Virus record (IMG/VR): IMGVR_UViG_3300025732_000002
Location: 1,209-65,208 of that record
Strand: one strand, 5' to 3'
DNA: 64,000 bases
From: a virus
Lineage: Duplodnaviria > Caudoviricetes
A program made the position numbers and the translations under genes. Within the stretch, counting starts at the first letter, position 1; the number at the start of each line of letters is the position of its first letter. This document shows, piece by piece, positions 7,460-46,462 of the stretch. The notes below the pieces were generated by a model. The model saw only the letters and a program-made list of their open reading frames with translations. It ran no database searches and was not told the origin of the DNA.

Positions 7460-9061
7460 ATGGCTTTAGTTCTAAAAGACCGGGTCCAAGAAACGACCAC
7501 GACAACGGGTACAAGCGACTTTACCCTTGGCGGAGCTGTCCTCTCCTACCAGGCTTTTTCTGCCATTGGCAACACCAACACCACCTACTACACTGCGTTT
7601 GACCCCAATGCTGGGGATTGGGAAGTAGGTATTGGTACGTATTCCACGACCGGTCCGACCCTGACCCGTGACACGATTCTGGCTTCCAGCGCAGGCGGCG
7701 CCAAGGTTTCGTTTGGTGCTGGGCAGAAGAACGTATTCTCCACGTACCCAGCTGAGCGCTCGGTTAATCTGAACTCTGCTGGCACGTACATCACCCCGTC
7801 TGCGTTTGACACAGTGACGGCCAACACGGCCACATTGACTGCGGGCACTATCAGCACAACGCCGTCCAACAGCACGGACATTGTTAACAAACAGTATGTT
7901 GACACAACGGCGGCAGCATCTTTGCACTACCACTCCCCGGTCTATGTGGAGTCGCCAAACACGGCGGGCAACCTAAATGCCACGTATAACCAGCCGGGCG
8001 GTCCCGGTGTAGGTGTTGGGGCTACGCTGACCAACGCGGGAACAAAAGCGGCGCTGACTATCGACGGCATCCTGATGACCATCGGTAAGCGGGTCTTGAT
8101 CTACAACCAGACAAACGGTTTCGAGAACGGTGTGTACACGGTTACCACCGTCGGAACGCCTGATCCGGGTGGCACAAACTGGGTGTTGACCAGAGCAACA
8201 GATGCGGATACGTACGCGCCCAGCAGCCCTAACTCTTTGGGGCAGGGCGATGCGTTCTTTGTGACGAACGGAAATACCGGCGCTGGTGAGACGTACGTTT
8301 GCAACACGGTGGGTACGATCACGTTCGGAACCACATCAATTGACTTTGTTCAAATCTCCAGCGCTCAGGTGTACAGCGCGGGCACTGGCCTGAGTCTCAG
8401 CCCGGCTACTACGTTCAATATCGCCAATACCGGCGTGACGGCCACAACGTACGGCGGCGCATCTCAGATCCCAACTATTACGGTCAACGCGCAAGGTCAG
8501 ATTACCAGCGCATCTGATACCACGGTGTCGGTTGACTTGGCCACACAGGTCACGGGCAATTTGCCGGTTACCAACCTTAACAGTGGTACGAGCGCATCGG
8601 CGTCTACTTTCTGGCGCGGTGACGGTACATGGGCTGCGGGTGTTTCTGGTCCTACAGGTCCGACTGGCCCGACGGGTCCCACCGGTCCGGCAGGGGCTCC
8701 TGGCCCCACTGGCCCCACTGGTGCTCCTGGTCCCACTGGCCCAACAGGTCCGACTGGCCCCACGGGCCCAACAGGTCCGACCGGGCCTGCTGGTTCTACT
8801 ATCCGCACGGTAACGGACTTTACTGCCACCGCAGGGCAAACCACATTTACGGTTTCTTATACGGTGGGGTATCTGGACGTGTTCCGCAACGGCGTGAAGC
8901 TGGCATCGGCGGATGTGACGGCAACAAACGGGACAACGTTTACGATCCCTGCATGTACCTCTGGCGATGTTGTCCAGGCGGTTGCATATCAAGCATTGGG
9001 CATAGCAAACACAGTAACCCCCGGCAAGAGCATTGCGCTGGCAATGATCTTTGGCTATTAA
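7460..9061 (+). CDS. Tail fibre protein with collagen-like Gly-Pro-Thr segment
   Basis: [10 protein letters not shown]-terminus; [14 protein letters not shown]; (GPT)n at ~8648-8790. Confidence 0.8.
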
Positions 9062-12401: not shown

Positions 12402-14236
12402 CAAACGCTACAAACCTGGCAACCACCGGAGCTTTGGTCAACAGTTCAGGCCAGGTTCCTTTGGCGACGGGCGTTGCAGGCAATTTGCCGGTTACCAACC
12501 TTAACAGCGGTACGGGCGCTTCGTCCACTACGTTCTGGCGTGGTGATGGGACTTGGGCTACTGGCGTATCCGGCCCGACCGGACCAACGGGACCTACCGG
12601 CCCCACGGGTCTTGGCTACACCGCCATGACATCGACGTCATCGGTGGCTATTGCCACGGGCTCCAAGACGTTTACAACCGATTTGGCATCTACGGCTACG
12701 GCATTTGCCGTTGGTCAGTACATCCGTATTTTCAGTACGGCATCGGTTTCCAACTACATGGAAGGCAACATCACGGCGTTTAGCAGCACCACGCTGACTG
12801 TGAACGTGACGCTGACTGGCGGTTCCGGTACGTTTGCTTCGTGGGCCATTACTTCTACAGGAGCGCAAGGCGCTACTGGACCTACCGGGCCTACCGGGCC
12901 TACTGGTCCTACGGGTGCCACCGGCCCCACGGGTTCTCCTGGACCTACAGGCCCCACGGGGCCTACCGGCGGCCCTGGTCCCACGGGACCTACCGGCCCC
13001 ACTGGCCCAACAGGACCATCCGGCGCGTCTATTTTAGGCACAACCAATACTTGGACGGGCCTAAATTATTTTCAGTCTAACCTTGGGCCAACCTCTGGAA
13101 GTTTGAGCAACCCTCCGTTGCAGGCCTATTCCACAGGAAATAATTCGGCATTTATGTCGTTCCACAAAGGTGGGTACTATGCCATCAACATGGGTCTGGA
13201 TTCGGACAACGTGTTTAGGATTGGCGGATGGTCAGCCAGTGCAAACCGCCTTCAGATGGATATGTCTGGCAACTTAACCATGGCCGGAGTTGTTACCTCT
13301 AGCGGTAACACCGGTTTCCGTAATGATGTTTACTACGTAAGCACAAGAAACCCAATTTGGTGTTTTGGTAACGCAACTGCGTATGGTCTGAGTTATTTTC
13401 AGGGAAGTTCGGGACTTGCAGGCATAGATACTATTGGGCTTCATCCAAACGGCACTGCAACAGGAAGTGGATCAGTTCTTGCTGTTACGAGTGCTTATAC
13501 CCAGTCTTTGGGCAGTTTGAGAGCACCTCTTTTCTACGACAGCGACAACACCGGATATTACGTAGACCCGGCAAGTGGTTCTAATCTTAACGGTACGCTG
13601 ACAAATAATGGCGGCGCTTCCATGACGGGTGGTTGGAACCGCAATTTATATCTTGCGTCCACATTTCCAGTTATTGTATTTGGTTCCAACGGCACTAAGT
13701 TTTCTGGTATTGGGGTAGATTATTCTGTCGCCGCCTCTGGGTTTTATTTTTGGGTAAACGGGTCTAGTGCAGACATATCAGGTACTGGAACCGTAGCGTT
13801 ATCCATAAATACGGGAAATTATGTACAGGCTTATGGAAGTTTTAGAGCACCCATTTTCTACGACAGTGATAACACCGGGTACTATGTTGATCCAAATAGC
13901 ACCTCATATGTTTACTATCTCCAGTCCGCAACTTCTGTGCGGTCTGATTCTGACGAGCGCGTCAAAGACAACATTGAACCAATCCGCAACGCGCTGGAAA
14001 AGGTTAAGCAACTTGCCGGTTGTACCTACACCCGCACGGACCTGGAAGATAAAACCAAACGCCACATGGGTATGTTGGCGCAAGATGTTTTGCCAATCGT
14101 TCCAGAGGTTGTCGGCGGTAGCGAGGAAACTCGGTACAGTATTGCCTACGGTGAAATGTCGGCGCTGTTGGTTGAGGCCATCAAGGAAATTGATGAGCGG
14201 TTGACTGCGCTGGAAGCAAAAGTAAATAAGGAGTAA
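12398..14236 (+). CDS. Tail fibre with collagen repeats and C-terminal intramolecular chaperone (peptidase S74)
   Basis: (GPT)n; [18 protein letters not shown]; G.LAQDV..PEVV; LLVEAIKE. Confidence 0.85.
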
Positions 14237-28461: not shown

Positions 28462-31400
28462 ATGGCAACAGTTGAGGATCTCTTTGCTGCATTGAAAGCT
28501 GCCGATGCGGCAGGGAACACCGAGGACGCAACCAAGATCGCTCAATACCTGAGTGGTCTTGGATATGGGCCCAAGATAGAAGCCGCTCCGCCCAAGAAAG
28601 AAACTGGCTTCAAGGATTACTTAAAGGACATTCCTAAAGCCGTTGGCCGTGGTGCCACTGGTCTGTTGGAAACGTCTGCAATTGGCGCGTCTGCCCTGTT
28701 GCCGGAAGACTACGAGAAGTCTGTTCGAGCTGGCATTGAGAGCTTGGCCAAACCCACCCGCGAGTACTTGGCTCCTGCTACGCCTGAGATTGGCGAGAGC
28801 GTATCTAGCAAACTGCTTTCTGGTGTTGGATCTACTCTACCATTTTTTGTTGCCGGTCCTTTGGGCCTTGCTGGTCGTGTTGGCGCTGGCGCTCTTGGTG
28901 TTTCCGCTGGTGCCGGTGAAGCGCGTCAGGCCGCAGAACAAGCGGGCGCTACGCCTGAAGAGATTAGTCGGGCTACTGCGTTGGGCGCGCCAACAGGCAT
29001 GCTGGACATTCTTGCCCCCAACATTGGTCCACTCAAGAGTATCTTCACCACTGCCCTTGCCCGCGGTGGGGTGGAAGGTTTGACCGAAGCCGCCCAGAAG
29101 GTGGCCCAGAACTACATTGCCAAAGGCGTCTACGATCCCAAGAAAGACGTGCTTGAAGGATCAGGTGAGGAAGGCGTCTATGGCGCTGGTGTTGGCGCGC
29201 TAACCAGTCTGTTGGTTGATTTGACTCTTGGCCGTCGTGCTAAGGGCGCAGTTACCCCGCCCCCGGAGAGGCCGCCTGCTGCAGCTGCTGCACCAGAAGC
29301 ACCTGCCGCCCTTGGCCTGCCTAGCATAGAGGCCCAGCCGGCCCGCCCCGGGTTCTCTGCGCAACAAGCCCAAGACCTGCGGCAAGAAGCCGAGCAGTTG
29401 GAGCAGATGCGTCAGCAGGCTATTGAGCAGAACCGTCTGGATGACGTGGCCAGGATTGAGGCGGCCATGCTTGCCCAGCAAGAACGTGTTGCCGGCATGT
29501 CAGGGTTTACCCGATCGGATGGCAACGTTGCCATTCGTCAAGCCATGGAAGAGCGGCGACAGGCGGAGGAAGACCAGGTTCGGGCTGAAGCTGTTGCCGC
29601 AGAACGACAGCGCCAAGCGCAGATCAGACAGATTCAGGCAGCCACGTTTGACCCGGATCCTGTGCGAAATGAGCTGATTAAGCGTAGAGAGCTGGAGCGA
29701 TTGGGGGCTGGTCCTGCCGCCCCTGCCGCCCCTGCCGCCCCTGCAGAGCCTGCCGCCCCTGCCCAGCTGGAAGAGCCGGCCGGCCTGTACGGCAAACGTG
29801 AGCCGCTCGAGACTGAGCCGCAAGCCAAGCCCCGTGGCGTGCAGAAGTTTGAATTCACGCCTGAAGAGCAGGCAGAGATCAAGTCCGTCAAGGAAAGTCT
29901 TGCGGCCATCAACAAGGACATTACCGCAGCCAAGGCTCAAAAGACGAGCCTGTTCAAGGCGCTCGAGGGCAAACTGACTTTTCGTCCGGGCTCGATTAAC
30001 CTGGCTGATATCGACGTGGATAAGAAGTCCCTGCGTCGCCTGTACAACAAGGAAGGCAAAGGCGCCCTGCTTGAGGACATGGTTGAGGATGGGGCGCTGG
30101 ACGACTTCCTGCCTCCCGAGAACCGCAAGCTGGTTGGCGGCCAAGAGAATCCAAGGTTTGATTCTCAGGCTGCAATTGATCACATTACCGGCAAGCTGCG
30201 GTCTGGTGATTACACGTCAGAGATTGAGGCTGCAAACTTGGCTGCGCTGGAGCAACAGCGGGATGCGGCCAAGGCTGAGCTGGAGAAACTGGAAACGTTG
30301 CCAGCCATAAATCGTGAGTTGGCTGCAGGTCGTCGCCCTGCCGAGCCAAGTCTGCAGGATCTGATGGAAGAGGCGGCCAACACTGGTTTGGACGTTGAGG
30401 CTATCAAGGAAGATGTTGCTCGCCGCATGCCGGATGCAACTGATGCCCAGTATCGTGGTGCTTTGTACAACGCATTGACGGCGGCAACAAGCAAAGAGCC
30501 GTTATATGAAAAGTATGCCCTGATTAGCGCCAACCCAGAGCAATCCAAAAATGCAAATGCTCACGCCAAAGACTTTGGCGGATCTGTTGTCTACCAAAAT
30601 GGCGACATTGGATTGGTTCAGGCGTACAGTGCAATCAATGGAGACCCTGTTTACATTCCGTTTAAGGGTGAGTATCGGGTTGGGAAAGATATTGAAAGCA
30701 TTCAAACCAACCCTCTTAATCTGACGCCCGAGCAGAAAAAAGAATTGTCGGACGCAAGAAAACAAGTTATTGAAGAAGAATCAAAGCGCAAAGAAACCGT
30801 AGTCAAGTTTGACAAAGATGGTCTTGGTTTTTCAAAGGATATAGATCCACGCATGGTTTCGGTTTTGCGCGGATGGAAAAAGATGTTGAACATTCCAAAT
30901 AATGTTTACATCACAACCATTGAAGACGCTAGAGCAAACAGCAAAAACTTCACGGGTCCGTATCGCCGGATAGGATCTGCAGCGCTTGACCCAAATGCTG
31001 AAGGAACAATGCGTCACCTTGGCAATGGTGAGTACTACATAACATTCACAAAATCTACCAGCGTAGGAAGAATGCTGGAGGTTTTAGCCCATGAGCTTGG
31101 GCACATCCATGAGGTTGTGGTTTTTAACAATGCTTCTCCAGAAATGAAGAAGGCAATTGTTGATGAGTACAACAAGTGGCTGAAATCAAATCAAGGCAAA
31201 ACTGCTCGAGAGCACATTGAAAGCATGCGCGCAAAGCGGTTTGCAAGAAGCGCTGCAGCAAAGACGGATGCATCTTTGATGTCTTCTGAAATGCGGTCCT
31301 ACTGGCGTCGCTTTGATGAGTGGTACGCAGACCAAGTTTCTCGTTGGGCAACCACCCAAGAGAAACCTTTGAGCGTTGTTGAAAAGTTTTTTGCAAAGCT

Positions 31401-34400
31401 TGGAGCGGCACTCAAGCGATTCTTTAACTCTTTGCGCGGTAAAAACTTTTTGCCATCAGAGACGTTTATTGACTACATGGATCGCGTCACATCTTCCGCA
31501 AAGTCTGACGCAGCTCCGATTGCAAGCGTTGGACAGATGGAAATGTTTGCGCTTGAGAAGCCCATTCTTGGCTTTGCAACAAAAGAACCAGCACCTGTTC
31601 GCACCCAGATGGGCAACGATGCCATGGAGATGCTCGAGGGTATTGGCCGCTCTGTTGCCCCGCCTGAGCCTGGCTACATCCAAAAGGTTCGTCAGTCTTG
31701 GGACAACGCGCGCGACAACCCAAAGGCTACCCGAGAGGCTGCGTACGGCGCATTCCGAAAGTTTGCCGATCAGGTTGAGACGTGGTCATTCAGCAGTGAT
31801 GCTGCGCTGAACAACCAGATCCGCCGTGAAGTGATGAACTCCATGGTTGGTAACGAGCAGAAGATTGGAATGCTGCTCAACACCAGCCTGAGCCAGACCG
31901 CTCACTCTGACGCCATTGCCAACCTGTTCTTAATGGAAGGCAACATCAAGTACGACACTGAGTTGCACAAGTGGGTCGGCGTCAAGGATGATCGCAACAT
32001 CTTCAATCTGTCCAAAAAGCTGGACGAGATTGCGGAAAAGCACGGTTTAACAAAAGAGCAGATTGAGCTTATTGCCCATACGGCTTTTGAGGCTCGCCGC
32101 ACACAAGAACTTAATGAGTTCAATGACAACATTGATGCTCAGGTTGAGGCCATGCGGGCAGAGGCTAGGGCTATGCGCGCGGCAGGAAAGCCTGTTGCCG
32201 CAAGCGCTTTGAGTGACAAGGCACAAGCCCTTCTTGCTAAGCGCAAGAATACAAAGAACATGCCGGCGGAAAAAATTCAGACTGGCATGCAGTTCTTCAA
32301 GATGTTCCCAGAGCTTAACGAAGTCTCTGAGATTTGGAACGGCATTCGTAGCAATGCTCTTGATGTAATGGTTGACACCGGCCTTTACACAAGAGAAGAA
32401 GCAGACATGCTTATGGATGCAGCCGGGTACGTTCCGTTTTTCCGCGAGGATCAAATTGAAGAAGGCAAGGGTCCGAAAGAGTTCTTGCGTTCGCTGGCTG
32501 TACAAGCGGACAAAGGATTGAAAGGGTCAGAGAAGCCGGTCAACGACATCTTTGACAACATGGTGCGCTGGACTCAGTACGCCATCAACCGCGGTGTACG
32601 CAACCGCTCCGGCGTGGCGCTTGCCACTACGGCCGAAAAGCTTGGCCTTGCTAACAAAATCCATGACAAGAACAATCCAGACAACATTGGGATTGGGTTT
32701 GATGAGCAAGGCAACCCGATGCTGGAAAAGGTTTCCGGTCGTGGTGTTATCCCGTTCAATACGCCCGCTCAAGCAAGCCAAGCTCGCGCCACCCAAGATT
32801 CTCTGAAGGATTACGGAGTCTTGGCGGTTGAGGTGGAGCAAGATGGGAAAATGGTAAAGAGATATGTACTGTCTCCTCCCATGCCTGCGGACAATCTGGT
32901 CTACGTTTGGCAAGACGGGGAAAGGGTTGGCTATAACATGGCTGACCCGCTGTTTATGTCAGCCTTCCGTGGTCTCGAGTCTGTGGCTATCCCGACGGTC
33001 AAAGTGTTCAGCAAGATGGCTGACGTGCTGCGTCAGTCTGTGGTGCTGTACCCCCTGTTCTCTATCGCTCAGGTTCCGCAGGACTCGTTTGCTGCAATGT
33101 TCACGTCCGGCTTGAAGCCGCAGTACGCCCTGTCCATTCCCTTTCGTGCGGTCAAGGAATTTATCCAGACCCTGCGCGGCAAGAGCAAGGCGCATGAGGA
33201 GCTGAAGAACATTGGTGCCGTTGGCGTGCGTGACTTCACGTCTGCCGTGATCCGTGCTGATGCCGAGATCTTTGCGGGGCTCAAGCAAGAAAAGAGTTTC
33301 TGGGCTGGCGTAAAGCGCAAGCTTGGCAACTTGGCCATGGCCGCTGATAACGCTGTGCGTCAGGCCACGTTCGAGGCGGCAGAGGCTCAGGGCTTGAGCA
33401 AAGCAGAGGCGTATGAGAAGGCGTTCGAGATCTTCAACGTGCGCCGCCGCGGCAACAGCAAGATGCTTGCCTTGGCTGGCCAGGTTATCCCGTTCTTCAA
33501 CGCCTACCTCGCTGCCCAGCATGTGGCCTACCGTACGCTGACCGGTGTTGGCACGTCGCCCACTGAGCGCAAGGCAGCCTTCCAAACGCTGGCTGCCACG
33601 ACCGGCTCGGTGATGGCTCTGTCTGTCCTGTACGCCATGATGAATGGTGACGACGAGGATTACCTGAACAAGCCGACGCCTACGCGTGACCGTCTGCTGA
33701 TGATCCCTGGCTCTGGTGGATTCAGCATCCCACTGCGCGCGGACATCTTTGCGCTACCCAAGGTGGTTGCCGAGCATACGTACATGCTGCTCACGGATAA
33801 CGGCTATGAGGATTCAGCAAAGTTCCGTGCGTCTCTTGCATCACTGTTGGCCAACTCTATCCTGAGCCCGACGCCTGTGCCACAGGCCATCAAGCCGCTG
33901 ACAGAGGCAATCATCAACTACGACTTCTTCCAGCAGAAGCCGTTGGTTGGCTTGTTCCAGCAGAAGAAAGAGCTGGGGCGCCAGTTCGAGGACAGCACGT
34001 CTGAGATTTCCAAGCTGCTGGGCAAGACCGGCGTGGTATCGCCCATCGTGGCAGATCACCTGATCCGCGGTATGTTTGGGTCATTTGGTGGTTTGCTCAT
34101 GTACATGACTAATCCGATCTTGGCTGAGATGTCCGGCACTCCGCGCCCGTCTTTGTCTTTCCAAGATGCATTGGCCACTATCCCCAACGCTAGTGGATTC
34201 GTTTCCAAAGAATATGAATCTGCTCTGCGCAAGGACTTCTATGCCCTGAGAGAGGTGACCGAGCGCGCGGCTTCAACTCTGTCTGACCTGAAGCAACGTA
34301 GCCCGCAAGACATTGCAGACTACCTGTCGGATGAGACGGTCCGTCAGCGAGTTGCCTTGGCTCCGGCCGTTAACCAGATTGCCACGCAACTAACTAACAT

Positions 34401-34551
34401 CCGCAAAGCTGTGACCATGATTAGTCAAGCGTCAGAAGATCGGATGGACGAGGATGAGAAGCAGCGGCAGATCAAGCAGCTGCGAGAGGCTGAGCGGCAG
34501 CTACTCCAAGGGGTAAACCTGAAGAAGCTGCGCGAGATGGCCAATCTGTAA
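28462..34551 (+). CDS. Large polyvalent ejection protein (zincin-like metallopeptidase plus LPD38-like C-terminus)
   Basis: LAHELGH...FDEWYADQV; C-terminal IPFFNA, P.AIKPL.E...NYDFF, SP...DHLIRG.FG. Confidence 0.75.
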   Translation: MATVEDLFAALKAADAAGNTEDATKIAQYLSGLGYGPKIEAAPPKKETGFKDYLKDIPKAVGRGATGLLETSAIGASALLPEDYEKSVRAGIESLAKPTREYLAPATPEIGESVSSKLLSGVGSTLPFFVAGPLGLAGRVGAGALGVSAGAGEARQAAEQAGATPEEISRATALGAPTGMLDILAPNIGPLKSIFTTALARGGVEGLTEAAQKVAQNYIAKGVYDPKKDVLEGSGEEGVYGAGVGALTSLLVDLTLGRRAKGAVTPPPERPPAAAAAPEAPAALGLPSIEAQPARPGFSAQQAQDLRQEAEQLEQMRQQAIEQNRLDDVARIEAAMLAQQERVAGMSGFTRSDGNVAIRQAMEERRQAEEDQVRAEAVAAERQRQAQIRQIQAATFDPDPVRNELIKRRELERLGAGPAAPAAPAAPAEPAAPAQLEEPAGLYGKREPLETEPQAKPRGVQKFEFTPEEQAEIKSVKESLAAINKDITAAKAQKTSLFKALEGKLTFRPGSINLADIDVDKKSLRRLYNKEGKGALLEDMVEDGALDDFLPPENRKLVGGQENPRFDSQAAIDHITGKLRSGDYTSEIEAANLAALEQQRDAAKAELEKLETLPAINRELAAGRRPAEPSLQDLMEEAANTGLDVEAIKEDVARRMPDATDAQYRGALYNALTAATSKEPLYEKYALISANPEQSKNANAHAKDFGGSVVYQNGDIGLVQAYSAINGDPVYIPFKGEYRVGKDIESIQTNPLNLTPEQKKELSDARKQVIEEESKRKETVVKFDKDGLGFSKDIDPRMVSVLRGWKKMLNIPNNVYITTIEDARANSKNFTGPYRRIGSAALDPNAEGTMRHLGNGEYYITFTKSTSVGRMLEVLAHELGHIHEVVVFNNASPEMKKAIVDEYNKWLKSNQGKTAREHIESMRAKRFARSAAAKTDASLMSSEMRSYWRRFDEWYADQVSRWATTQEKPLSVVEKFFAKLGAALKRFFNSLRGKNFLPSETFIDYMDRVTSSAKSDAAPIASVGQMEMFALEKPILGFATKEPAPVRTQMGNDAMEMLEGIGRSVAPPEPGYIQKVRQSWDNARDNPKATREAAYGAFRKFADQVETWSFSSDAALNNQIRREVMNSMVGNEQKIGMLLNTSLSQTAHSDAIANLFLMEGNIKYDTELHKWVGVKDDRNIFNLSKKLDEIAEKHGLTKEQIELIAHTAFEARRTQELNEFNDNIDAQVEAMRAEARAMRAAGKPVAASALSDKAQALLAKRKNTKNMPAEKIQTGMQFFKMFPELNEVSEIWNGIRSNALDVMVDTGLYTREEADMLMDAAGYVPFFREDQIEEGKGPKEFLRSLAVQADKGLKGSEKPVNDIFDNMVRWTQYAINRGVRNRSGVALATTAEKLGLANKIHDKNNPDNIGIGFDEQGNPMLEKVSGRGVIPFNTPAQASQARATQDSLKDYGVLAVEVEQDGKMVKRYVLSPPMPADNLVYVWQDGERVGYNMADPLFMSAFRGLESVAIPTVKVFSKMADVLRQSVVLYPLFSIAQVPQDSFAAMFTSGLKPQYALSIPFRAVKEFIQTLRGKSKAHEELKNIGAVGVRDFTSAVIRADAEIFAGLKQEKSFWAGVKRKLGNLAMAADNAVRQATFEAAEAQGLSKAEAYEKAFEIFNVRRRGNSKMLALAGQVIPFFNAYLAAQHVAYRTLTGVGTSPTERKAAFQTLAATTGSVMALSVLYAMMNGDDEDYLNKPTPTRDRLLMIPGSGGFSIPLRADIFALPKVVAEHTYMLLTDNGYEDSAKFRASLASLLANSILSPTPVPQAIKPLTEAIINYDFFQQKPLVGLFQQKKELGRQFEDSTSEISKLLGKTGVVSPIVADHLIRGMFGSFGGLLMYMTNPILAEMSGTPRPSLSFQDALATIPNASGFVSKEYESALRKDFYALREVTERAASTLSDLKQRSPQDIADYLSDETVRQRVALAPAVNQIATQLTNIRKAVTMISQASEDRMDEDEKQRQIKQLREAERQLLQGVNLKKLREMANL

Positions 34552-43535: not shown

Positions 43536-43816
43536 AGTGGGGGCGCGGTGAGCAGTTGCCGCATTGCTTCTCCTATGAGGGTTAGTGGGGCCTGAGATAT
43601 GGCCCCACCTTTTTAGGACCAACACGCATGGGGCTGAAAGCGGGTTAGCGCCGCGGACTCTCTTCTCAGAGTGTTGTTCAATTGCCCACACTGCTTTATG
43701 TGAGCGGCCCCAGCCGTGTTGGGTGTTAAGCCAGCAGTCGAGGATGCCGACGCAGGTAGTTTTCTGGCTTTCCTGCCTGCCGTAGTTGAAGGCCAAATCG
43801 AGCCCAACTCCCCCAC

Positions 43817-43846
43817 TTGACACGGATTTTCACCCCCAGATACAGT
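43817..43846 (+). promoter_or_regulatory. Sigma70-type promoter
   Basis: TTGACA-N18-TACAGT. Confidence 0.55.
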
Positions 43847-43849
43847 ATG

Positions 43850-44013
43850 GCCGTCGGTGTGGCAACCGGCGATGAAGATAGGTTACAAACCCCGCAGGGT
43901 ACTGTGTGGTCTTGTCGTGTAGTAGGCGAGTCTTTTGGACTTATCTTCAATCGCTTGCTGCTGCTCATGCCAAGAGCCAAGACCACAGAGCATCTTGCGG
44001 GGTTTTTGCTTTT
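43850..44013 (+). ncRNA. Candidate structured leader / antisense-type RNA
   Basis: 28-bp imperfect inverted repeat 43887-43914 / 43978-44005 followed by a T-run; upstream GGCAAC-loop hairpin. Confidence 0.4.
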
Positions 44014-44554
44014 GGCTGCTACAGAGGATCGCAGACCGAAGTTTGCTGCGAATTAAGTGGGACTCAGAACCCAGCCTACGCCCGACTGGACACAGGTAGA
44101 CCGCATTACGCCGCCGTAACTGTGTTGAGAGGCTACGGGGGAACCTTCCCAAGCCGACCCGAAATGAGTGAGGCGAAAGCCTGCGAGGAACCGGGAGAAG
44201 GGGGTGTAGCAAGCACCGTAATCCTCGACTGCAGAACGCTTGCATGTGTCTGCTGGCCCCGTTATGTCCCATCCCGACCGACAGGTTGAATGGCAGGAGG
44301 CAAACCACTAAGGGCAGCAATGCTCTTAGGTGAGTTCTGCCCCTAGCGAACCCTCCCTCCCTCTAGGTTAAATAAATATATTATGAGTAGAGCCGGAAAC
44401 AAAAGTTCTCTGGCAACGTTGCCAACAGGAAACCAAAGAATCCAGCTGTCACTTAGGTGACATTTTTTTGTTGACCAGTGGTGCACATAAGCGTACATTT
44501 CTGCACATGGCAGCAGCAAGACTGTCATTCATCAACCTAAATTGGAGTAAGCAA

Positions 44555-45214
44555 ATGAGCGTGAAAGAAGAGACTGGTGTTATCACCGCCCCCAAGTTTG
44601 GCACCGTGCAGTTCATCATCGAGGGCACTGCCCCGCTGGTGGTGGAGCGGTTCAGCAAGAAGGCGGAGCTGATGGCCAAGATGGCAGAGGGTTCATCTGC
44701 CAAGAACAAGAAAGAGCGTAGTGCACGGGACTATGACAAAGAGGCCGAGGAGGCCCGTTACCGTTCGCCCGAGGGCTGGGAGGGTATGAATGCTGCGGCC
44801 TTCCGCGCGGCCATGATCAGTGCCTGCCGTCTGGTGGGTTTCAAGATGACGCTGGCTAAGCTATCCACCTTTGTTGAGGCTGACGGGTTTGATAAGAACG
44901 ACGGGGTTCCGTTGGTCCAGATCTATGGTGAGAGCCACACGTATACCGCTCACACCCGCAACGCGACCGGCGTGGTGGATGTGCGTTCACGTCCGATGTA
45001 TCGCAAGTGGGCGGCCAAGCTGTCGGTGCGGTATGACATGGACCAGTTCAAGATGACAGATGTATTGAACCTTGTGTCCCGTTGCGGGATGCAGGTAGGG
45101 ATCGGGGCGGGCCGTCCTGACAGCAAGGCTTCGGCTGGCTGTGGGTTTGGTCTGTTCCGTGTGGTGGAGACCGACCGCGAGAAAGAGGTCAAGAAGCAAT
45201 TCAAGATCAATTGA
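44555..45214 (+). CDS. Stand-alone Cas7/RAMP-like RNA-binding protein
   Basis: IEGTAPL strand; AAAFRAAMISA helix; RP.YRKW..L.V.YD; G-rich loop GMQVGIGAGRP......GFGLF.V; GGAG RBS. Confidence 0.75.
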   Translation: MSVKEETGVITAPKFGTVQFIIEGTAPLVVERFSKKAELMAKMAEGSSAKNKKERSARDYDKEAEEARYRSPEGWEGMNAAAFRAAMISACRLVGFKMTLAKLSTFVEADGFDKNDGVPLVQIYGESHTYTAHTRNATGVVDVRSRPMYRKWAAKLSVRYDMDQFKMTDVLNLVSRCGMQVGIGAGRPDSKASAGCGFGLFRVVETDREKEVKKQFKIN

Positions 45215-45221
45215 TTCGCTA

Positions 45222-45666
45222 GGCAGGCATGGCTAGGCGCGGATCGGCGCGGCCAGGATCGTCAGGGCAGGCAGGGCGGGGAACGGCTTGGCTGGGATCG
45301 GCTTGGGCCGGCGCGGTTTGGAATGGCAGGCGAGGCAAGGCACGACGGGGTAAGACCCGGAGAGGCAGGGCAGGCTTGGAGAGGCGGGTATAGGCCAGGC
45401 CGGGAATGGTGTGGTGCGGAATGGCAACGCAGGCTAGGCGAGGCCGGGATAGGAGTGGTATCGCAAGGACTGGCAGGCGAGGAGAGGCTTGGCAAGGACG
45501 AGCAAGGCGTGGTTTGGCAACTCAAGGCAGGCGTGGTGAGTCGAGGTTCGGTCAGCTTTGGATTGGGAAGGCAGGCAAGGTGTGGCGAGGCGAGACCGGG
45601 TACGGCATGGCCGGGTGTGGCAGGCATGGTTAGGCTCGGAGCGGCCGGGATCGGCTAGGCAGGCAA
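45222..45666 (+). repeat. Non-coding GG(Y/A)NN pentamer array of nine GGCA-delimited units (putative guide-RNA array)
   Basis: 80 in-phase pentamers, 70 starting with GG; 4-nt delimiters at 45222, 45266, 45325, 45369, 45428 (CGCA), 45472, 45526, 45570, 45619, 45658. Confidence 0.9.
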
Positions 45667-45686
45667 TTTTTTAACAGGAGAGAAGC

Positions 45687-46145
45687 ATGAGTTTGGAAAT
45701 TGAAAAGACAGTACTGATGGATATTGCCAAGAAAAACGGCGGCATTCTTCAGGTGGATGCGGTGTTGGACGAGGCCAAGGACGAGAACAGTCCTTTGCAC
45801 AGTCACTTTGAGTGGGATGACAGTGCTGCCGCGGAAGCGCACCGCCGCTATCAGGCGCGCGTCCTGATCCAGCGATGCAAGATCACCATCGTGGATTCTG
45901 AACCAACCACCATTCGGGCATTTGTTAGCCTTCAGTCAGACCGAGAAGCTGGCGGCGGCTATCGCATGACGACCAAGGTCATGGACGACGAGGCCCTGCG
46001 GGAGGAGTTCCTGCGGGACATCCGTCTGACCATTGCGCGCTGGAACCAGAAGCTGAACCTGCTGGACTCCATCACCGCGGAGCTGATCTACAAGTTGGAA
46101 GATGCCGTGCAGCCGGCAACGGCACCACTGGAGAAGCGGGCATGA
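45687..46145 (+). CDS. Conserved hypothetical protein, putative accessory factor of the RAMP/array locus
   Basis: AGGAG RBS; SPLHSHFEWDDSAAAEAHRRYQARVLI...RAFVS. Confidence 0.8.
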   Translation: MSLEIEKTVLMDIAKKNGGILQVDAVLDEAKDENSPLHSHFEWDDSAAAEAHRRYQARVLIQRCKITIVDSEPTTIRAFVSLQSDREAGGGYRMTTKVMDDEALREEFLRDIRLTIARWNQKLNLLDSITAELIYKLEDAVQPATAPLEKRA

Positions 46146-46462
46146 AGCGTGCCCTGATCTTGGCGCTCATGGTGGGCTCGGCGCATGCTGAGTTCATGGA
46201 CGGCAACAAGTTACTCTCTGATCTTCAGAGTGGTTATGTTGAGAACAGGATGTACGGCATGGGCTACATCATTGGGATAGCCGACATGGGTCGTGGTTAT
46301 ATCAATTGCATGCCTGAAAACGCAACCGCCGGACAAATTCGAGACATGGTCAAGAACTATCTCGAGAACACGCCGGCTGAGCGGCATCAAACGGGGGACA
46401 TATTGATCAACCGGGTTCTCAAGGCCGTCTGGCCGTGCGCTAGGCGTGGCAATTCAATGTAA
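46142..46462 (+). CDS. Rap1a-like exported immunity-family protein
   Basis: Signal peptide (..AHA/EF); GN.L, GYI.GIAD, C.P....GQ..D.V..YL...P..RH, WPC. Confidence 0.75.
   Translation: MKRALILALMVGSAHAEFMDGNKLLSDLQSGYVENRMYGMGYIIGIADMGRGYINCMPENATAGQIRDMVKNYLENTPAERHQTGDILINRVLKAVWPCARRGNSM

Follow-up and report, generated by a model that had tools for sequence, protein, structure and literature searches.

A probable VIPR locus with predicted integrase-directed guides in a complete 65-kb freshwater phage genome

The stretch of DNA analyzed here (the window; 64,000 nucleotides corresponding to bases 1209-65208 of the 65,208-bp IMG/VR virus record IMGVR_UViG_3300025732_000002) contains a gene for a 219-aa Cas7-like RAMP protein, an array of G-rich pentamers and a 152-aa accessory gene in immediate succession (table 1). 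The locus is best explained, with a probability that we put at about 0.87, as a VIPR system (Viral Interference Programmable Repeat) that belongs to a freshwater phage with a complete genome of 65 kb and includes guides directed against integrases. This assignment is based on the RAMP fold, the profile homology to the Vipr protein of Escherichia phage SUSP1, the YNNGG repeats, the phage genome free of cas genes, the adjacent accessory gene and the predicted targets that follow the skip rule. VIPR loci are phage-borne and combine a small ancestral RAMP protein (Vipr) with an accessory gene (vap); the preprint that describes them gives 9-16 YNNGG repeats followed by a tail for each vrRNA, a minimum of four YNNGG units in its vrRNA caller, and a mode of recognition in which NN pairs read double-stranded DNA (dsDNA) with one base skipped, usually the codon wobble position (PMC13142463). 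Each repeat is occupied by one Vipr protomer (10.64898/2026.04.26.720927), and a screen for 5-nt entropy periodicity recovers 99 VIPR-like clusters (10.64898/2026.10.21.760802). A preliminary description had labeled the locus a candidate non-CRISPR RNA-guided system, which was right, and had named VIPR as a class to which it might belong. That class does exist in preprints of 2026 and the locus shows those of its features that can be tested. The possible novelty of the class does not hold, since VIPR has already been described, and the locus adds a member and no new kind of system.

Vipr protein, guide array and accessory gene

Both of the RAMP hallmarks that the preliminary description had noted in the 219-aa protein are present (FIIEGTAPLVV and GMQVGIGAGRP...GFGLF), and structure prediction points in the same direction. 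An AlphaFold2 model, computed from an alignment of 74 family members that also provided the family profile, reached a pLDDT of 92.3 and a pTM of 0.88, and the top matches of this model in a Foldseek search against the PDB were Csm3, Cmr4 and type VII Cas7 (best E 7.6e-6). A Cas7/Csm3-like RAMP fold is confidently predicted from the model. The profile had a single match among all PDB sequences, chain 36pp_D, entitled "SUSP1 Vipr protein" (E 3.2e-7, profile positions 153-201), and the single sequence from the window matched the SUSP1 Vipr chain with an E of 0.01. In the HMMER alignment the thumb arginine R138 of SUSP1 Vipr corresponds to R146, which is kept in 72 of the 74 family members, and the G-loop arginine R179 corresponds to R187, which is kept in all 74. 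This comparison of GGY-reading residues covers R138, D177, W178 and R179; H17, K33 and E71/M72 are not alignable. The protein belongs to no Pfam family, matches a PHROG of unknown function (phrog_4652, E 2.4e-20) and represents a large family (2177 clusters at the 50% identity level with E<=1e-3, and 5401 at the 90% level); a search of the genome collection (genome_contigs) with this query identified no relative.

The array starts four bases after the vipr stop codon (45212-45214), with the first GG at 45222, in agreement with the earlier account of a 445-nt array that follows the stop by 7 nt. The T-run, the ribosome-binding site and the 152-aa open reading frame (ORF) that this account placed behind the array were likewise found. 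The claim of pentamer phasing was borne out in one respect and corrected in another: identity within the array is 0.50 at lag 5 compared with 0.31 +/- 0.02 in 300 shuffles (approximately 9 standard deviations above), and 0.48 and 0.50 at lags 10 and 15, but one global 5-nt phase does not hold over the whole array because each of ten 4-nt CAGG units shifts the phase by one. In a dynamic-programming parse the pentamer phase slips back by one base at each of these ten units, and the 445 nt resolve into 81 pentamers and 10 CAGG tetramers. The boundary between guides is a semi-conserved CAAGG followed by the four-base CAGG that shifts the pentamer register by one, which amounts to about 10 constant bases (CAAGG CAGG C). 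No other long G-rich tract with a period of 5 occurs in the window.

The pairing of gene and array on which the preliminary description depended recurs throughout the relatives of the locus. A total of 59 related vipr loci with 51-100% protein identity were identified in a scan of viral contigs, and a period-5 G-rich tract of about 180 to >1100 nt is present in all 58 of them that have downstream DNA, beginning within 40 nt of the vipr match in 57. Parsing of 41 distinct arrays, the one in the window included, resulted in 4122 pentamers, 429 tetramers, 26 hexamers, 11 heptamers and 5 trimers. The first position of the pentamers is C or T in 80% of the units, the second and third positions are free, and the fourth and fifth are G in 84% and 83%. 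A boundary logo derived from 433 sites in 44 distinct arrays reads GG-C-A-A-GG-CAGG-C, with a bias toward CAAGG in the unit that precedes CAGG, and most of these 44 arrays share a common ending (GGCAGGCA, a T-rich stretch and GGAG).

Comparison of close relatives shows where the arrays vary. One related locus (L002) encodes a Vipr protein 100% identical to that of the window and shares the last 361 nt of the array region (window 45326-45686), which comprise guides M3-M9, the array end and the ribosome-binding site; the guides next to vipr differ. Array variants found in metagenomes skip 175 or 225 nt. These variants and the difference to L002 indicate that turnover affects entire guides as modules. 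In contigs from two metagenome runs, 45242 is joined to 45418 and 45344 to 45570, and divergence inside the array is seen in several contigs; phage populations that co-occur therefore differ by whole guides.

Since CAGG breaks the 5-nt register, it is probably the guide boundary. Alternatively, CAGG might not be a boundary at all, with the guides overlapping or staggered or the array coated as one continuous filament, in which case the parse into nine guides would be an artifact. The seven published VIPR types do have varied array architectures that include "staggered arrays with overlapping vrRNAs" (PMC13142463), the later parse that defined the nine guides of the window rewarded CAGG, and guide ends are known here from the sequence alone. 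However, the parse of the 41 arrays favored no tetramer and still yields CAGG in 385 of the 429 tetramers, the CAGG-to-CAGG intervals in these arrays cluster at 7-13 pentamers, near the published 9-16, and whole intervals between two CAGG units match the targets described below (22/22 read bases for M2, 18/18 for module 4 of L040 and 24/26 for module 2 of L017). Furthermore, the arrays of the window and of L002 differ by whole modules. An artifact of the parse is unlikely on this evidence, and the nine-guide organization is used in the following.

The 152-aa gene behind the array is probably the accessory (vap) partner of Vipr, and a vap-like homologue follows the array in 42 distinct versions of the locus, the window's own included. 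Six vap families (vap1-6) have been described, which are predicted DNA binders, nucleases or helicases; the 152-aa protein is possibly DNA-binding. The preliminary description had seen no cas genes and no CRISPR array, and four kinds of search concur. No Cas family was found when 74 window ORFs were compared with Pfam (70 at E<=1e-5 and 4 at E<=1), PADLOC returned 0 matches for five ORFs of the vipr locus, and neither Tandem Repeats Finder nor a direct-repeat search identified a CRISPR-like repeat-spacer array in the 64-kb window, so that a class 1 CRISPR-Cas operon accompanied by such an array was not found there.

Table 1. Features of the vipr locus, with positions counted from the first base of the window
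Feature	Position	Strand	Basis or remarks
Terminator-like hairpin and T-run, closing the upstream unit	44447..44469	+	Consensus scan, pattern match only
Candidate sigma-70-like promoter for the vipr-array-vap unit	44471..44499	+	TTGACC, 17 nt, TACATT
vipr, 219-aa single-domain RAMP (Cas7-like) protein	44555..45214	+	ORF, fold, profile homology
vrRNA array	45219..45663	+	81 YNNGG pentamers (nine guides, M1-M9, and one leading unit); ten CAGG tetramers
Guide M1	45228..45267	+	8 units; NN: AT TA GC TC GC CA TC AG
Guide M2	45272..45326	+	11 units; predicted target MKAGKEHKVPL motif of P4-type tyrosine integrase genes
Guide M3	45331..45370	+	8 units
Guide M4	45375..45429	+	11 units; last unit CAACG probably part of the boundary
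Guide M5	45434..45473	+	8 units
Guide M6	45478..45527	+	10 units; last two (CAACT CAAGG) resemble a boundary variant
Guide M7	45532..45571	+	8 units
Guide M8	45576..45620	+	9 units
Guide M9	45625..45659	+	7 units; predicted target Y(D/E)RA(D/E)Y(I/M) catalytic-tyrosine motif of tyrosine integrases
Array end	45664..45686	+	CAA, T-run 45667-45672 (TTTTTT), AGGAGA ribosome-binding site 45676-45681
vap-like accessory gene, 152 aa	45687..46145	+	ORF, starts with ATG after the ribosome-binding site of the array

Predicted guide targets

Targets were searched on both strands with queries built according to the published one-base-skip rule (NN, one wildcard, NN and so on). The 22 read bases of guide M2 have one exact match in the viral collection (viral_contigs) and five in genome_contigs, located in a Rhodospirillaceae metagenome-assembled genome (MAG), in Nitratireductor, in two Methylocystis MAGs and in an Aquaspirillum MAG, against a chance expectation of about 0.07 matches in the genome collection (596 Gb). 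All six matches lie antisense within integrase ORFs of 402-476 aa, at the peptide RMKAGKEHKVPLS, and start at codon phase 0, while the skipped (wobble) bases differ among the six. M2 reads codon positions 1 and 2 of the integrase motif MKAGKEHKVPL. The matched viral ORF is predicted to encode a P4-type tyrosine integrase because it contains the domains Arm-DNA-bind_3, Phage_int_M and Phage_integrase.

The guides of eight related arrays point to the same genes. When 314 distinct guides from 44 arrays were compared with the six M2-matched loci (37 kb) and up to 2 mismatches were allowed, a skip of one base gave 26 matches, compared with 9 without a skip and 5 with a skip of two bases. All 21 guide matches inside the integrase ORFs, which originate from 9 arrays, are antisense and at codon phase 0, and they fall on three motifs: MKAGKEHKVPL, HGFRS(S/T)FRDW and (LAH)xIxNKVEAAYR. 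The last of these is matched by a 26-base guide with 2 mismatches (module 2 of L017), for which the chance expectation is about 5e-8. Guides of the related loci L002, L003, L004/L005, L017, L026, L040 and L043 match the HGFRSxFRDW and NKVEAAYR motifs of this integrase family, and integrase targeting is therefore a theme shared within the clade.

An independent set of integrases was assembled from 301 genomes of the class to which the Aquaspirillum MAG belongs, of which 62 were matched (with G301, an unpublished genome, counted in). A total of 28 integrase loci (110 kb) were used, with one duplicate (L078) and one unpublished locus (L091) left out. Matches of at least 90% numbered 8 with a one-base skip, 0 with no skip and 1 with a two-base skip; the corresponding numbers were 63, 24 and 29 at the 85% threshold and 167, 68 and 79 at the 80% threshold. 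Within this set, module 4 of L040 matches an integrase at all 18 read bases, M2 matches two further integrases at 20 of 22 bases, and M9 matches two further integrases at 12 of 14 bases on the peptide YNRAEYL.

Guide M9 has 14 read bases and at least 80 exact viral matches. Among the 80 matches listed, the longest open frame is antisense and at phase 0 in 29, and an antisense phase-0 frame of at least 60 aa is present in 40. Of these 40 frames, 17 belong to the Pfam family Phage_integrase and carry the motif AAY(D/E)RA(D/E)Y(I/M) at the catalytic tyrosine. M9 is accordingly annotated as a guide that would read Y(D/E)RA(D/E)Y(I/M) around the catalytic tyrosine of tyrosine integrases. Neither M2 nor M9 has a target at >=80% in its own window.

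Antisense orientation is uniform among these matches, which raises the question of the nucleic acid that is bound. The same components might act on integrase mRNA instead of dsDNA: the 21 matches in integrase ORFs and the 17 M9 matches in integrases, among those listed, are all antisense to the coding strand, the four independent families of integrase-directed guides are all complementary to mRNA (4/4), and the nearest structural relatives of the protein, with Csm3 and Cmr4 as top matches, are RNA-targeting Cas7 proteins of type III systems. However, four out of four antisense families have a probability of about 0.06 under strand neutrality, and published accounts of characterized VIPR describe binding to dsDNA, an R-loop triplex and silencing from either strand (PMC13142463; 10.64898/2026.04.26.720927). 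We therefore regard action on mRNA as improbable. It is scarcely credible that the tract is no guide array at all and that an orphan RAMP protein of another function instead lies next to an element acting in DNA or by its structure, or next to a region coding for a protein rich in glycine and arginine. ORFs of 111 aa and 121 aa can be drawn through the tract and G-rich repeats are able to form other structures, but a reading frame cannot accommodate a 5-nt period whose register shifts, and the coding reading was rejected for that reason. Moreover, NN is free and GG fixed across the 4122 units, intervals of guide length match integrase motifs only under the one-base-skip rule, and the same pairing of gene and array defines a characterized system, VIPR.

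The remaining guides gave little. M1 has 8 exact viral matches that represent 4 distinct sequences in mixed reading frames, which corresponds to the chance level, and its match count was used to gauge the size of the viral collection (about 1-2e10 bases); a 15/16 match of M1 in one related locus (L056) lies in an ambiguous frame on a contig that looks frameshifted. No match above chance was found for M3 in the local sets. M4 has 0 exact matches in viral_contigs with either 11 or 10 units and 0 matches with up to 3 mismatches in five genomes or records, and the full M6 (10 units) and M8 have 0 exact matches in viral_contigs. A single match of M4 without its last unit in metagenome_contigs (sense, phase 0; the frame has 226 aa and the contig 1.3 kb at a GC content of 0.40) was judged to be at chance level and rejected. 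On the 22-kb contig that carries an M2 site, no site of >=80% was found for the other eight guides except one 16/20 match of M6, so that this element is not a point of convergence for the guides.

Several findings weigh against the assignment to VIPR with integrase-directed guides. Targets are assigned for only two of the nine guides, with M4, M6 and M8 lacking an exact viral match and M1 at chance level, and the total number of M9 matches is near chance at 14 read bases, so that only the integrase enrichment counts. In 387 kb of DNA flanking vipr loci, matches with 1 mismatch show no excess for the rule (5 with a one-base skip, 0 with no skip and 4 with a two-base skip). Exact matches occur in distant taxa (Alpha- and Betaproteobacteria) because the guides read conserved peptide motifs, and such matches therefore do not single out the natural target element. 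On the protein side, homology to SUSP1 Vipr is limited to about 50-64 residues, and conservation does not extend to the residues with which SUSP1 Vipr reads the two guanines: D177 corresponds to A185 (E in 55 and A in 12 of the 74 family members) and W178 corresponds to G186 (G in all 74). On the RNA side, the array has no SUSP1-like structured 3' tail (whole-array fold z -2.05, centroid mostly open), and the two metatranscriptome runs X19 and X20 contributed a single contig each, limited to 45638-45872 and 45821-45971 at the array end and vap, with DNA as a possible source of both.

Genomic setting and cultured relatives

The source virus record has direct terminal repeats and is rated 100% complete. 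Pfam families identified in the window (70 ORFs, E<=1e-5) include terminase, capsid, SU10 adaptor, tail-fiber domains and lysozyme as well as a Sak annealing protein, a PD-(D/E)XK nuclease, a helicase and Toprim; no integrase was found among these 70 ORFs. Upstream of vipr, a terminator-like stem (44447-44462) is followed by TTTTTTT, and the sigma-70-like site behind it agrees with the consensus at 9 of 12 positions, with 3 promoter-like sites in the region compared with 1.6 +/- 1.2 in shuffled sequence; it is a weak candidate for the promoter of the vipr unit. As evidence for expression, runs X15 and X16 were rejected, being probably DNA. Rfam and tRNA scans of the vipr locus gave no match.

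Several features lie outside of the locus itself. The approximately 1 kb on the 5' side of vipr (43536-44554) is without a convincing ORF and contains several terminator-like hairpins and one promoter-like site. Rfam matches there did not exceed noise, and further small RNAs could be encoded in this region. A gene at 46142-46462 (+ strand) overlaps the accessory gene at its end; its 106-aa product has an N-terminus that resembles a signal peptide and matches Rap1a, a type VI secretion immunity family (PF18602, E 4.9e-15; phrog_3870). A 2029-aa ORF (28462-34551, + strand) with "large polyvalent protein associated domain 38" (PF18857) adjoins a gene for an SLT transglycosylase protein; its product probably serves as a giant virion or ejection protein. 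Two tail-fiber-like genes contain 9-nt coding repeats of the collagen-like type (Gly-X-Y), at 8624-8817 and 12836-13020, and one of the two genes carries an endosialidase chaperone domain.

Relatives of Vipr are also present in named phages. A tblastn search of 50,697 phage records identified 33 with a Vipr relative, consisting of Cyanophage Cy-LDV1 (57% identity), 27 mycobacteriophage records and 5 Gordonia phage records. Cy-LDV1 (L188, BK059895.1) has the same order as the window, with a vipr-like gene (1501-2127), a short array with GGCAGGC boundaries (about 2146-2335) and a 193-aa accessory homologue (2352-2933). This cultured cyanophage of Cylindrospermopsis raciborskii carries the closest named Vipr, and a putative excisionase is encoded downstream. 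In Mycobacterium phage Donkeykong (L189, NC_051648.1) the module occupies 965-1310, 1303-2049 and 2064-2519, and the array is located upstream of the vipr-like gene 49. The coding sequence annotated over this array as gene 48 ("hypothetical protein") is probably a mis-annotation, gene 50 is an accessory homologue (33% identity, E 1e-21), and an excisionase gene follows. In the Cheoctovirus mycobacteriophages the same Vipr module occurs, again with the array ahead of the vipr-like gene. In a 43-kb relative (L056, 2696-3352 and downstream) the vipr and accessory frames look interrupted by frameshifts while the array is kept, which could reflect a decaying locus or an assembly error.

Comparison with known systems, proposed mechanism and significance

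The locus resembles the type II VIPR of Escherichia phage SUSP1 and a Pseudomonas fulva prophage in its small single-RRM RAMP protein with G-loop and thumb, its pentamer guides (YNNGG, or GGY-NN), its setting in a phage genome without cas genes, its small adjacent accessory gene and its predicted targets, which follow the one-base skip with the skipped base at the codon wobble position. SUSP1 needs its VIPR to immobilize a satellite, which occurs through silencing of the excision recombinase at an active-site motif (10.64898/2026.10.15.759431); as for vrRNA4 of SUSP1, the target predicted here is a recombinase active-site motif of a rival mobile element. There are also differences. Sequence similarity between the two Vipr proteins is marginal, GVGDWRP in the G-loop is replaced by GIGAGRP (GIGEGRP in the family consensus), and the guides have 7-11 units compared with the published 9-16. 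The nine guides of the window are arranged head to tail and split by CAAGG-CAGG, whereas SUSP1 produces separate RNAs of approximately 100 nt, each with a pseudoknot tail of approximately 60 nt, and the predicted targets are tyrosine integrases instead of a satellite recombinase with a catalytic serine. Because a structured 3' tail is lacking, the locus is not of the SUSP1 (type II) architecture.

In contrast to the Cas7 proteins of class 1 CRISPR effectors (Csm3, Cmr4, type VII Cas7 and the domains of Cas7-11), the protein is accompanied by no repeat-spacer array or other cas genes and lacks a second RRM; each step spans 5 nt, of which 3 are hidden, compared with 6 nt and 1 base flipped out for Cas7, and the target would be read discontinuously. 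TIGR-Tas systems likewise have short-period tandem guide arrays outside of CRISPR that adjoin an effector gene, but their period is 18 nt and their effector (FpTasA) has a different fold (10.64898/2026.10.21.760802), and no relation was found between the TIGR-Tas effector and the Vipr protein of the window.

By analogy with SUSP1, vipr, the array and vap would be transcribed rightward as one unit. Vipr protomers would then coat the array RNA, one for each YNNGG, with the GG and the following pyrimidine held and the NN exposed. The preliminary description had already proposed one subunit per 5-nt unit that grips GGY and presents NN, and the published mode of action of VIPR lends support to this proposal. 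The exposed NN pairs would bind dsDNA, skip every third base and block transcription. The four-base CAGG may end one Vipr filament and start the next, or may mark a cleavage site. M2 and M9 would silence the integrases of satellites or prophages in the host and thereby prevent excision or spread of these elements during infection. We somewhat favor such a role, the blocking of satellite or prophage integrase expression during infection by a phage in which no integrase was detected. As only the amino-acid-determining bases of invariant catalytic motifs would be read, escape through synonymous mutations would be useless.

Two parts of the locus might be new: the CAGG grammar of guides placed head to tail, and the fact that guides converge on tyrosine-integrase catalytic motifs. 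A broader proposition, which we offer tentatively and consider rather less likely than its converse, is that this Vipr clade uses tail-less, register-coded arrays with broad-spectrum, motif-level antisense guides on three tyrosine-integrase catalytic motifs and swaps its guides at the vipr-proximal end. If this is true, a tail-less array would mean that one transcript could nucleate many short Vipr filaments without a structured handle, and, provided that it has not already been described for VIPR, the clade would add both a vrRNA architecture and a general target class that are new.

The first reports of VIPR date from 2026, and it has been proposed as an ancestor of CRISPR effectors and as a very small programmable DNA binder. 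To this class the locus adds an example from a complete and abundant environmental phage with a nine-guide array, a simple boundary signal unlike the SUSP1 tail, and testable targets in the form of two 20-32-bp sites in integrase catalytic motifs. The presence of the Vipr module in the cultured phage Cy-LDV1 and in Cheoctovirus mycobacteriophages makes it open to bench study. At the level of phage biology, the predicted targets would extend the published idea of recombinase immobilization from one satellite family of E. coli to tyrosine integrases in general.

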